From: Spongospora subterranea f. sp. subterranea
Taxonomy: Eukaryota
NCBI GenBank assembly: GCA_049724395.1
Contig: JAUGWO010000001.1
Span: 124,001-188,000, forward strand
Length of the DNA stretch: 64,000 nt
Direction of reading: 5' to 3'
Every line of letters begins with the position of its first letter. The stretch's first letter is position 1. This document shows positions 59,521 through 64,000 of the stretch, one piece after another. The notes under the pieces are model-generated. The model was not told the DNA's origin and did not search any database. It saw only the letters and a list, made by a program, of their open reading frames with translations. A program made the translations under genes and the position numbers.

Positions 59521-62500
59521 ATGGCGCCCGCCTCCGAACCCGATCCGCTCGAGAAGCCGCCGCTGCCGTGCCCATACGACCTCTACTCCCTGAACCCGTA
59601 CGATCGCCACACCAATCCCGACGGGATCGTCGAGCTGGCCATCGCCGACAATCGTCTGCTGTGGGATCTCCTCTCCGACCGATTGAACCGGTCGCGCGCC
59701 CTCACCTTTGACAGCGCCAGGTCCTCTCTCCGCCCTCCATTTCCCCCACGTCGATCCCTGACCACCGCTCCCCCGATCTAGATACGAATCCCCACACGGT
59801 TCGTCGTCGTTGCGTTCGACGATCGCCGATCTCCTGTCCCTGATGACGTTGCCCGACCAGACCCCGATCGACCCCCGATTCATATCGATCACATCCGGTT
59901 GCGAAGCGGCGTTGGACGTGGTTTTACAGGTGATCAGTTCGATTCGTGTCGTCCAATCCCCCCTGATCTATCGACCGCTGTTTTTGTTCATCTCAGACTG
60001 TTTGTGGAGTTGACGATGGCGTATTGGTCGTGACTCCATGTTATCCCGGGTTCATCAACAACGTCAACGTTCGCCATTATCGTCTCGTTGAGCGTTATAT
60101 CCCGATCGGACAGGTGAGTCGTAGTGGATATCGCCCATCGCGCTCTCGAACAACGACGTCCCTGAATTCGGACCAGGACCTGCGTCTGAACGAATCCGAT
60201 CTGAAGGGGGTGAAGGCGGTGATTATCTCCAATCCGAATGCGCCAACCGGGAGAACCCTGCCAAGGTCATGGCGCTATTCGGGTACCGTTTCCTGAACTG
60301 AACTGATCAACAGGTCGACGATCGCGGAGCTGATCGCGGTCACCAACGCGATTGGCGTGCACCTGATCGTGGACGAGATCTTTTCGGTGAATTCGCTATC
60401 GCCCCCCGATTCCCGCCCGTCGTCGTCCGTCGTTCCCTTCATCGCGTCGTCGCGCTATTCCCATCTCCACATGGTGTCGGGCCTGTCGAAGGTGGGTCTG
60501 GCCGGGTTCAAAATCGGCTTCATCTGCTCCCGATTACCTCATCATCGCCTTCGCCCGTTTACCACCTACTCCCAGCTCAGCTCCGACACCCAATCGCTGA
60601 TCGCCACCGTCTTCGCCGACCGTTCCTTCACCGCCACCTTCCTGTCGACGTCGCGATCCCGTCTCCGTCGCTCCTACGAACTCTGCTCCGACCTGCTCGA
60701 TCGCCACCACATCTCGTTCCTCAGACCCGACGCCGGCCTCACCCTCCTGATCGATCTGCGCGCGGCGATCGCCGACCGTTCCGAGGAGCAGTTGGCGGAC
60801 GACCTGTTGACCTCGGCCGGATTATATATCCGCCCTGGGCGATATTTCCATTGTCGCGAACCGGGCTGGTTTCGCCTGGTATTCGCCGACCACGATCAAG
60901 TTCGTGTGGGCGTCGAACGACTGGGGCGATTCGTTCGCGGGAACTGCCCGATCGTGATGAAGGGGGGCTACACGAGGCGGCTGTTGAGGACGTGGCGCCG
61001 GACCGATCAGATTTGGTCCTGTCTGCGATCAACCAACCCCGATCGATTCCTGCTTCGCCCGATCTCGTTGCGCCATCCCTTCATATTCTATATCGGCCAT
61101 CTCGTAAATATCGCGCTGCGGTTCGTCGTCATCGTTGCCCTCCCCTGACTCGGTTGCGCCCTTTGTTTTGTTCAGCCGGCGTTCGCCATCAACCAGATCG
61201 CCGCCGCCCTGGGTCAGGACAGCGTCGTTCGCGTCAACAAGGAGTTCGACGAGCTATTGTGAGTTTTCATCGTTCGCGAGAACGACGGTGAGATTTGATT
61301 CGGTGGCTGTAGTGAACGAGGGATTGACCCCGATGTGATAACCGGTTCTGTTCATGATCACAGCGCCGCCATCAACACCGATGATTGGCCGGATCATCGT
61401 TCCGTCTTCGAGTGAGAAACACCACAGCACCGTGTTTTTTCCCCATTTTCGCGCTCTGAACGGATTCTGAATCGTCGACGCTCCACAGATATTGTGAACG
61501 GGTTCACGACACGATCCTGGGCCTGGTCGATCAGCTCTTACGGAACCGGTGCTGGCGAACACTCGATATGATCATCGAGCACGAGCTAATGCACCAAGAA
61601 AAGTGGGTTTTTGTGGATGAAATCTTTCGCCCGTCGATCTAAATTCGCTGTCGATAGCCCTATTGTACATGATGATCCAGTGCGATGTCGAGTCGTTATC
61701 GCCACCGAAATCCATCACCGACGGGACCACCGCCGCGGCGACGGCGGTCCCGTCGCCGTCGAAATCGTGGCGCCGAATACCGGCGGGATCGGCGTCGATG
61801 GGCAACGACCAGGTCTTCGAACAAGACGGGATTTGTATTTGAGCGATTCGGTTTTATTGGGGGGATCTCTGATCGTCGTCGTCGTGGTTGTGCTAGTCGG
61901 ATGGGATAACGAGTATCCGCGCGTTGACTGGGCGGTGAACGCGTTCGATCTGGAGTCGGTGCCGGTGTCGAACAGGGACTACCTGGACTGGATCGCCGAC
62001 GGGGGATATCACCGGCAAGAGAACTGGGACGAGACCGGGTGGATTTGGCGATTGGAACACCGAATTGAGCACCCGGCTCTGTGGAAATACGATCACCAAC
62101 GACAGATCTGGTCGGTGGTTCTTTGTCGCCGTTTTCCCCTGTTTTCAACCCGCGATCCAATGTTTTTCCCATTTGTCGCCGGTTTCCCCCAAGCGATGCG
62201 ATTGATGGTGTGTTGGCAGGTTGGTGCGAACCCTGTTCGAATACGTCGCCTTGATGGATATCGCCGACCATCCCGTGTACGTCTCGTACGTCGAAGCGGC
62301 CGCCTATTCCCGATCCCATCGCTGTCGAATCATGACCGAACCCGGTTCGTAATTCCCCCCGGGCCGGCCGGCCACCGCCTAACCCATTCTCAATCCATCC
62401 CGTGTTCAGAATACGACCGCGCCGTTTCCAATTCCACCTCAGCACTATCGCCATCCGCCAACGTCGACTTCGCCACGTGGTCAACGCGCCCATCGGGGAT

Positions 62501-64000
62501 ATCCCAGACCAGTAACGTGCCCTCCCCCCCGAACCCGATCTTCATCGCCGATCTCAGTCCGATTCAGGTTCCGACAGTGGGGTCCACGACCTGATCGGGA
62601 ACGGCTGGGAATGGACCTCGTCCGTATTCGCCCCGTTGTCGTCCCAGGCCGATTTCCGTTCGCTGCCGTCCTACCCGGGCTATTCCGCCGACTTCTTCGA
62701 CGGGAAACACTACGTGATGAAGGGCGGTTCCTGGGCCACCGACAGATCCCTTCTACGACCGTCGTTCCGGAACTGGTCGGGAAAACTAGCGCCATCGCCC
62801 AATGGAATAATCATCTGAGTTTTTTATTTTTGTGGCGAATCAGGTACCAGGGCTGTTATCGGTTCCCGTTTGCCAAATTCCGTTTATGTCGCGATTGCGG
62901 CGTCGGGGCGATCCGATCCGCGATCGTCGACCTCGACCAGATCACGAAATCCAGCGCCGAGCGCGAGTTCGCCGACCATGTTCGGGAAGGGCTAACGTCG
63001 CGACCCAAAGCGATCAGCTCAATGTATTTATACGACGACATCGGCTCGGAAATGTCGGTTGGATCGGCGTGTGTGTGTGTGTCGGTGACCCACGATTTGT
63101 GATACGATGGCTGTCCAGATACGCCAAGATCACCGAACTGGACGAATATTATCCGACTCGAACCGAGGACGCGATCCTGAAAACGAACTGCGATTTTCTG
63201 CGGGAGATGATCGAGGGGGCGTTGACCAGATCGGGGTCGGTCAATATCATCGACATCGAGCTAGGATCGGGTGAGTGTCGATGGAACTCGGGGCGATTGT
63301 TGTTCCTGACCGACGACCACCCCCGTGTCAGGTGATGGGCGAAAAACGTTACCAATATTAGGGCGGTTCTCATATAGTTCACTGCCGTTCCGTTACTACC
63401 CGATCGACCGGTCCAGATCGGCCCTGGTCGCGCTGGACGCGTCGCTGGCCGGCGATGACCAGCCCCCGACCTATCCGATCACCATGGTCTGTGGCGATAA
63501 CCTCGCCGCCCTGCGCCACATTGTCGCCGCCAATCCCCACGATCAGCGCAACGTCGTCCTGTTCCTGGGGAGCTCGATCGGCAACTACGACGACGCCGCC
63601 GCCAAACTGTTCCTGAAAGCGGTCGCGGCGGTGTTGAACGACGACGACCTCGTGATAATCGGGTTCGATCTGGTCAAGGACCTGTCAATCCTTGTACCGG
63701 CTTATTCGGATCGCGAAGGTATTTCCGTTCGTCGTTCGTTTCGGGAATTTTACACCATCGTCGTCAGGTGTCACCGCCGAGTTCAACTACAACATATTGT
63801 CGCGAATGAACCGGGAACTGGGGGCGAACCTGTCCCCGGATCGGTTCCAGCACTACGCCCACTACAATCCGGTCGAGCAGCGCATGGAGAGTTTCCTGTT
63901 GGCGAAGGAGGCGCACGAGGCGGTCCTGAACCTGTCGTCCTCCAGGGAGGAGCCCGTCACGATCGCCTTCCGCCAGCACGAACCGATCCATCTCGAGGTC
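59521..64000 (+). CDS. Trifunctional fusion of an ACC-synthase-like PLP enzyme, an EgtB-type sulfoxide synthase (DinB_2 + FGE) and an EgtD-type histidine N-methyltransferase; truncated by the window edge
   Basis: PLP domain: LAIADNRL, SNPNAPTG, HLIVDEIF, SGLSK, PGRYFHCREPGWFRLVFA. EgtB: LRHPFIFYIGH, ERGIDPD, EHELMHQE, GWDNE, GNGWEWT, YPGYSADFFDGKH. EgtD: GLTSRPKAISSMYLYDDIGS, YYPTRTE, ELGSG, LFLGSSIGN, GFDLVKD, GVTAEFN. Confidence 0.92.

Follow-up and report, generated by a model that had tools for sequence, protein, structure and literature searches.

A Spongospora subterranea gene joining an ACC-synthase-like domain to EgtB and EgtD modules, a candidate one-chain pathway to ergothioneine

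The window analysed here is a stretch of 64,000 nucleotides from the genome of Spongospora subterranea f. sp. subterranea (positions 124,001 to 188,000 of contig JAUGWO010000001.1, assembly GCA_049724395.1). It ends within a gene that encodes three modules: a pyridoxal phosphate (PLP) domain resembling the 1-aminocyclopropane-1-carboxylate (ACC) synthases (ACS), an iron sulfoxide synthase of the EgtB type, and a histidine methyltransferase of the EgtD type (Table 1). The fusion of the three modules in one spliced reading frame is real. The start ATG is preceded upstream by an in-frame stop, the introns are 48-109 bases long, and the G+C content at third codon positions of the exons is 0.76, against 0.48 for the window as a whole. 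A Pfam scan of 14 exon frames found Aminotran_1_2, DinB_2, FGE-sulfatase and Methyltransf_33 in this order on the plus strand, which is the architecture proposed in a preliminary description made from the letters alone. Aminotran_1_2 (E 1.5e-24) and DinB_2 (E 0.006, below the cut-off) share one stop-free frame (60297-61145), and the Methyltransf_33 match begins in exon 14 (E 3e-4, below the cut-off) and reaches 2e-24 in later exons. The same description placed both junctions inside uninterrupted exons, and this is where they lie: PLP-DinB in exon 5 and FGE-EgtD in exon 14. The motifs that it cited are also in place, i.e., SGLSK with the PLP lysine at 60489-60491, LRHPFIFYIGH (61068-61100), HELMHQE (61580-61600), FAKFRL (62869-62886) and YLYD (63025-63036).

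Table 1. The fused gene, its domains and other features of the window (plus-strand numbering of the window)
Feature	Position	Strand	Remarks
Fused PLP-EgtB-EgtD gene	59509..63997	+	17 exons in the window; 1,152 stop-free codons; 3' end past the window
Exons 1-6	59509-59720, 59782-59929, 59997-60113, 60177-60265, 60314-61103, 61176-61258	+	
Exons 7-12	61313-61411, 61489-61601, 61658-61834, 61897-62110, 62220-62344, 62410-62511	+	
Exons 13-17	62568-62775, 62844-63053, 63119-63270, 63332-63718, 63768-63997	+	
ACC-synthase-like PLP domain (Aminotran_1_2)	59569..60938	+	about residues 21-397
Non-heme iron sulfoxide synthase (DinB_2 + FGE-sulfatase)	60960..62895	+	about residues 405-843
EgtD-type histidine N-alpha-methyltransferase (Methyltransf_33)	62962..63997	+	from about residue 866; cut by the window end
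Exon 5 with the PLP-EgtB junction	60314..61103	+	66 residues between the Arg of GWFR and the Arg of LRHP
Exon 14 with the EgtB-EgtD junction	62844..63053	+	from Pfam, read joints and reading frame
Extra A relative to the reads, at the intron 8 donor	61599..61602	+	absent from 7 of 8 runs; the eighth has no cover there
In-frame 6-base duplication	63248..63253	+	absent from 8 of 8 runs
Skipped stretch of 55 bases	60483..60537	-	GT..AG on the minus strand (CT..AC on the plus); X1 record 4 and X3; spans the PLP Lys codon
tRNA-Leu(CAA), first copy	58453..58538	-	identical to the second copy at 85 of 86 bases
tRNA-Leu(CAA), second copy	59016..59101	+	
Direct repeat	58218..58345		two 62-base copies, 90% identical, 66 bases apart
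His/Asp-rich frame	13393..14079	+	228 codons; hydrophobic, signal-peptide-like N-terminus; no Pfam match
Adenylate kinase exons and NDK exon	49771..52382	-	several adenylate kinase exons; suggests a multi-domain kinase gene
Retrotransposon gag remnant	5415..5984	-	
Zn-dependent phospholipase C-like frame	16223..16831	-	

The splice joints were taken from contigs of sequencing runs X5-X7, which are only guessed to be RNA. Introns 1-15 of the 16 occur as joints in these contigs, and intron 16 is not among the joints listed. The PLP-EgtB junction is bridged by X5 record 8 and X6 record 12, which start at 60803 and 60806, respectively, and are long enough to reach past the exon 5-6 and exon 6-7 joints. 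The FGE exons are linked to the EgtD exons in X5 record 9 (1,691 nt). The spliced contigs cross both junctions, which speaks against the split of the domains between separate transcripts that the preliminary description had allowed for. Positions 63998-64000 are the start of another intron, beyond which the reads stay in frame (N-S-Y-K-Y-S). Intron 8 has no GT donor in the window because of one extra A; this base and the 6-base duplication in exon 15 are probably assembly errors.

The residues expected of the two downstream modules are largely conserved. The synthase keeps Arg442, Tyr448, His451, Asp485, His544, His548, Tyr792 and Asn825-Trp826-Tyr827. His451, His544 and His548 are the likely iron ligands, and the H-x3-H-x-E site given in the preliminary description stands as regards HELMHQE, with the third ligand probably being the His451 of FYIGH and not the Glu. 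Tyr792 aligns with Tyr377 of 4X8B, a position that is presumably catalytic. In the composite motifs published for this family, Asn-Trp is found in the hercynine-accepting subfamilies EgtB-I and EgtB-IV and not in OvoA (PMC11030361, as excerpted). The window protein is one residue off the EgtB-IV motif RxYH--DxHxHYxNWFx (Tyr827 for Phe, when aligned to 8VIH and 4X8B and not in the alignment of that paper). It departs from the EgtB-I motif xSDH--RRHQHYYNWDR (it has NWYQ and the R/Y/H/D pattern of the other branch), from the OvoA motif ending in F(Y/F)AF (it has Asn-Trp-Tyr, and its methyltransferase is a Methyltransf_33 and not a ring N-methyltransferase) and from the composite motif of SenA. 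Its own motif matches that of fungal Egt1. The best solved matches of the synthase are, by sequence, EgtB-IV (8VIH/8VIG) and OvoA structures, and that of the methyltransferase is the mycobacterial EgtD (4PIM). When mapped to 4PIM via the relative P0005, the EgtD residues Tyr39, Tyr56, Gly86 and Asp113 correspond to Tyr889, Tyr906, Gly945 and Asp972, and Asn166, Tyr206, Thr213 and Glu282 to Asn1031, Tyr1071, Thr1078 and Glu1152; the Ser284 equivalent was found in the loose end of the reads past the window. The roles of most of these residues in the sites for histidine and S-adenosylmethionine (SAM) are given in PMC8593015 (in excerpt). Since the iron, catalytic and substrate residues of both modules are kept, it is very likely that together they make hercynylcysteine sulfoxide. 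The central domain is predicted to sulfoxidise hercynine at C2, with cysteine as the probable thiol in place of gamma-glutamylcysteine, because the EgtB-I motif NWDR is absent.

The PLP module is of a different kind from the known lyases of this pathway. Its nearest solved relatives are the plant ACC synthases (E 3e-22 by sequence), and the fold of the relative P0155 is also closest to ACC synthases (template modelling score 0.80-0.84). The fold matches include 9jwc, a class I lyase in complex with alliin, a cysteine sulfoxide. We found no EgtE or Egt2 among the 13 PDB sequence matches of exon 5, the 58 of P0005 or the fold matches listed. An EgtE/Egt2-type identity was rejected, as the domain is an Aminotran_1_2 and not a PLP domain of the cysteine-desulfurase type. 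Cleavage of cystine at its C-beta-S bond has been shown for ACC synthases and for several ACS-like proteins; the ACS-like proteins without Gln98 are C-beta-S lyases in which Asp245 and Lys285 are needed, while Gln98 is required for ACC synthesis only and occurs only in functional ACC synthases (PMC8580319, in the excerpted text). The window protein combines the ACS fold with the equivalents of Lys285 and Asp245 (Lys248 and Asp209), as expected of an ACS-like C-beta-S lyase, and also keeps Tyr72, Tyr136 and Arg376. Across the fused proteins, the PLP Lys and the Asp are invariant (10 of 10), and Arg376 and Tyr72 are present in all 9 aligned rows. The Gln98 equivalent is Glu73 in the window protein and is Gln in none of the 9 aligned fused rows, which makes ACC synthase activity unlikely and C-S lyase activity the natural reading for the family. 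A role as the ergothioneine lyase is suggested by the fusion context together with the known C-beta-S lyase activity of the family.

The architecture is shared by distant eukaryotes. Relatives were gathered by a HMMER search with exon 5, with matches spanning the junction, and a second search seeded from one match. (Exon 5 had no longer relatives in a word-seeded search and one in a near-length search, the family itself coming from the full HMMER search; the ESM Atlas gave no usable match for P0005.) The 234 proteins fetched include 7 with the order PLP-EgtB-EgtD, 6 with PLP-EgtB, most of which look truncated, 1 with EgtB-EgtD and 76 with the Egt1 order. Chromosphaera perkinsii and Mesostigma viride are the named carriers of all three modules and Rhizamoeba saxonica that of PLP-EgtB. 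The window model is 31-37% identical to the full-length relatives. An intron-free PLP-EgtB frame of 994 codons was also found on a metagenome contig of 63% G+C that ends within EgtB (L002:1506-4487, plus strand), and this fusion groups with P0002.

Several traits of the PLP domain and of its junction fit a single old fusion with a constrained junction. Quick, unrooted trees of 65 and 40 of the 119 PLP rows, one of them under a mixture model, place all fused PLP domains on one side of one branch (10 of 65 and 10 of 40 rows; SH-like approximate likelihood ratio test, SH-aLRT, 99 under two models). All 10 fused rows have a one-residue deletion after the PLP Lys, and 107 of the 109 stand-alone rows have the longer spacing. 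The distance between GWFR and LRHP is 64-69 residues in 11 of 13 proteins. In the AlphaFold model of P0155 (a relative and not the window protein, with a poor FGE part), the last PLP helix passes with high confidence nearly straight into the first DinB helix. The EgtB trees used 35 of the 85 EgtB rows or, in the wider one, 62 rows in which no bacterial phylum has more than 4. The case for a single origin rests on the PLP domain, because the fused rows do not form one clade in this widest tree (2 changes, unresolved). The EgtB and EgtD domains of the window branch apart from fungal Egt1 (SH-aLRT 98-99, in quick unrooted trees with 13-24 fungal-type rows and no plant rows).

EgtB sequences near the fused family (about 35-47% identity; loci L001-L160) also occur in soil bacteria, including Rokubacteria, Methylomirabilota, Myxococcota, Planctomycetota and others. 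A separate EgtD accompanies the related EgtB in 52 of 80 bacterial genome loci, and the neighbours of this EgtB in 80 metagenome loci include LysR (45), peroxiredoxin (30), transglutaminase-like (30) and GcvT-like (27) genes.

To our knowledge, ergothioneine synthesis in eukaryotes has been described for fungi and, since 2026, for non-flowering plants, always with Egt1 and Egt2. Egt1 is an EgtD-EgtB protein, and Egt2 is encoded separately (PMC4020840 and PMC13358676, in excerpt). The window protein resembles Egt1 in having synthase and methyltransferase in one chain and in the elements R..Y..H, GID, HxxxHxET, YxxY and NW[YF]Q common to 75 EgtD-EgtB rows, nearly all fungal; each synthase residue (R, Y, H, D, HxxxHxET, YxxY, NW) is found in 70-75 of these 75 rows, and all are found in the window protein. 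Unlike in Egt1, EgtB precedes EgtD, a PLP domain stands in front, and both domains branch apart from their fungal counterparts. We therefore rejected membership in Egt1: the order methyltransferase-then-FGE by which PMC13358676 (as excerpted) recognises it is not that of the window protein, which also lies outside the fungal Egt1 branch. Egt2 is of the cysteine-desulfurase type, whereas the PLP domain of the window is ACS-like.

The closest precedent in layout is the OvoB-OvoA protein of Hydra, described in the excerpted text of PMC8433421 as the only polypeptide reported to combine lyase, synthase and methyltransferase activities, in its case for ovothiol. It has the same order of a PLP lyase-like domain, a DinB/FGE synthase and a methyltransferase, but it makes a C5 thiol with ring methylation, whereas the window protein has an EgtD-type methyltransferase, the hercynine-type Asn-Trp and an ACS-like PLP domain. 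The two fusions appear to be independent, judging from the description of the Hydra protein. The metallopterin-dependent ergothioneine synthase (MES) also joins a PLP domain to a sulfur-inserting enzyme, but it is anaerobic and of the molybdopterin type, its PLP domain is a cysteine desulfurase that acts before sulfur insertion, and its EgtD is a separate gene (PMC9516567, in excerpt). The solved EgtB-IV, mycobacterial EgtB-I (4X8B) and EgtD enzymes that are the best matches of the two downstream modules are bacterial, separate or otherwise fused, with NWF (IV) or NWDR (I) where the window has NWY. As for the plant ACC synthases and ACS-like lyases (AtACS7, PDB 7DLW; PpACL1; PMC8580319, PMC9917878), the window protein shares with them the equivalents of Tyr160, Asp245 and Lys285, and differs in lacking Gln98 and in having Ala at Asn217, the deletion after the Lys, Lys for a conserved Arg, and the fusion to EgtB; the excerpted texts of these two papers report no link between ACS-like proteins and ergothioneine. 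We found no description of the PLP-EgtB-EgtD layout in the open literature, subscription papers being outside the search, and none in the excerpted texts of PMC13674229, PMC10805701 and PMC9103826. The suggestion that the architecture was undescribed for ergothioneine holds for the open literature searched, with the qualifications that it is conserved in distant eukaryotes and that three such activities are already joined for ovothiol in Hydra. The chemistry is known and this is not a new kind of system; what appears to be new is the combination of ACS-like PLP, EgtB and EgtD in one chain, in which the lyase step is putative. The sequence data support a layout that would work like Egt1 plus Egt2 and that belongs to neither Egt1, EgtE/Egt2, OvoA nor ACC synthase.

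We consider it probable that this single protein, which is longer than 1,152 residues, catalyses every step of the aerobic pathway. Judging from the conserved residues, the C-terminal EgtD domain would use three SAM to convert histidine into hercynine, and the central Fe(II)/O2 domain would couple a thiol, probably cysteine, to C2 of the hercynine imidazole as a sulfoxide. In the third and weakest step, suggested by the fusion and the chemistry of the family, the N-terminal PLP domain would beta-eliminate the cysteinyl part, giving pyruvate, ammonia and, after reduction, ergothioneine, in place of EgtE/Egt2. The protein would dimerise via its PLP domain, as is established for this fold. The preliminary claim that all three steps are encoded in one chain agrees with the spliced frame, the relatives and the EgtB and EgtD residues; it has to be amended in that the PLP domain is ACS-like and not EgtE/Egt2, with Ala181 as a caveat. 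On balance, and with somewhat less confidence, we also lean towards the broader view that an old, scattered eukaryotic family (ichthyosporeans, a streptophyte alga, an amoebozoan, S. subterranea and further protists) makes ergothioneine with a single self-sufficient polypeptide, its ACS-like domain having been recruited independently as a third kind of lyase for hercynylcysteine sulfoxide.

A number of results weigh against these proposals. The full-length relatives score below the curated models: 189-221 bits for EgtB (NCBIfam cut-off 360), 229-255 bits for the OvoA N-terminal model TIGR04344 (cut-off 400), which exceeds their EgtB score, and 287.8, 277.0 and 249.3 bits for TIGR03438 (cut-off 290.9), a model built for prokaryotes, the window having been scanned as exons. 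There is no contextual support from bacteria, as an ACS-like neighbour was found in none of the 159 loci with related EgtB whose flanks were examined; when the search is split, an ACS-like frame occurs in 0 of 80 genome loci and, among 80 metagenome loci, in the fusion L002 alone, so that a bacterial operon precedent was not found. No single contig spans the whole gene. The window copy has lost the Asn217 equivalent (Ala181, next to Asn180). This Asn is kept in 104 of 109 stand-alone rows but in only 6 of 10 fused rows; the protein of the free-living C. perkinsii (P0153) has it. An assembly error can be discounted for Ala181, because the reads over exon 4 list no differences. The Tyr of DEIY, replaced by Phe212 in the window, is present in 3 of 10 fused rows against 103 of 109 stand-alone rows. 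Mesostigma has an Egt2-like candidate in addition to the most degenerate of the fused PLP domains. Finally, free PLP converts the sulfoxide into ergothioneine (PMC4020840, in excerpt), so a fused lyase is not strictly needed.

The main alternative is an EgtB-EgtD enzyme that in this species performs only two steps and ends with hercynylcysteine sulfoxide, with a weak or structural PLP domain and another lyase or free PLP finishing the reaction; other members of the family could still be active. With Ala181 and Phe212, the PLP O3' oxygen has lost the two residues that usually pair with it, the Asn and the DEIY Tyr. The N217A variant of AtACS7 lost both ACC synthase and lyase activity (PMC8580319), PLP alone completes the reaction, and P0158, from the same clade, consists of EgtB-EgtD without the PLP domain. 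We nevertheless regard this alternative as unlikely: Lys248, Asp209, Arg376, Tyr72 and Tyr136 have all been preserved over five exons, Asn180 adjoins the lost Asn and might substitute for it, and the substitutions are family-wide and look like remodelling and not decay. The lyase of the window copy may still be weakened by them.

Alternatively, the PLP domain could be active in a side task, as a cystine or cysteine lyase, as a transaminase, or in disposing of a by-product of the sulfoxide synthase such as cysteine sulfinate. Cystine is the only substrate tested for ACS-like lyases, and AtACS10 and AtACS12 are aminotransferases (PMC8580319, as excerpted). ACS-like domains are also joined to unrelated partners, namely an AurF-type diiron domain (P0017) and class I methyltransferases (P0033, P0076). 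The fixed junction length and the persistence in a single clade suggest instead that the domain is closely coupled to EgtB, and the other two domains provide every step but the lyase, which makes a side task doubtful. We find it very improbable that the product is a different thio- or seleno-histidine (an ovothiol-like C5 compound, selenoneine or a less methylated betaine). By sequence, the structures closest to the synthase are those of EgtB-IV and OvoA, with TIGR04344 giving the highest score. The Met252 equivalent of the EgtD domain is Ser (an M252V/E282A EgtD was engineered to accept tryptophan, according to the title of PDB 4PIP), and fungal Egt1 also makes selenoneine (PMC4020840). However, the Asn-Trp at the hercynine site and the retained Glu282 in EgtD indicate hercynine and C2, and the OvoA and SenA motifs are absent. 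A true ACC synthase making the ethylene precursor from SAM would agree with the best sequence and fold matches of the PLP domain and with the use of SAM elsewhere in the chain, but it is hardly credible given the loss of the Gln98 equivalent. An artefact of the gene model, in which two or three neighbouring genes were joined, could be argued from the lack of a contig over the whole gene and the guessed nature of the runs; it can be set aside, given that spliced contigs cross both junctions within stop-free exons and that the order is common to relatives from separate lineages.

A second signal overlaps the fused gene. Part of it is the 55-base joint over the PLP Lys codon, which probably reflects a spliced antisense RNA. 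Deep unspliced contigs occur in runs X1-X4, which come from one sample, with a word depth of 230-410 compared with about 10-20 upstream. They begin at 61828-61848 in three runs and at 61313 in X2, and adjoin an AATAAA on the minus strand (61853-61858). Antisense transcription, or introns retained at one life stage, may account for this signal, the contigs showing neither strand nor level; the runs of the other sample are spliced at this locus. The Pfam scan of 68 frames found no pathway cluster in the window, the neighbours being adenylate kinase/NDK, Integrator subunit 4, an ABC transporter and PP2C. About 400 bases upstream of the fused gene, the two tRNA-Leu(CAA) genes make up an inverted repeat that is perfect over 91 bases and whose arms are 465 bases apart.

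With the fused family, several protist lineages would join the eukaryotes that make ergothioneine, and would do so by means of another gene. In the 2026 plant survey, EGT1 was recognised by its EgtD-first order and was present in one KCM-grade alga only; Mesostigma appears a single time in Dataset S1 of that survey, listed with an Egt2-like sequence (PMC13358676, as excerpted). Mesostigma carries the fusion, which therefore appears to have been missed. If our reading is correct, producers such as Mesostigma would be revealed where Egt1-based surveys scored the pathway as absent, and the sulfoxide would be the first natural substrate of ACS-like proteins outside ethylene synthesis. Fermentation, for which artificial Egt fusions are already under construction (PMC13547098, in excerpt), would benefit from a natural pathway encoded by one gene. 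What ACS-like proteins do when they lack ACC synthase activity could be examined directly in this family, as could the idea that ACC synthases arose from C-beta-S lyases.

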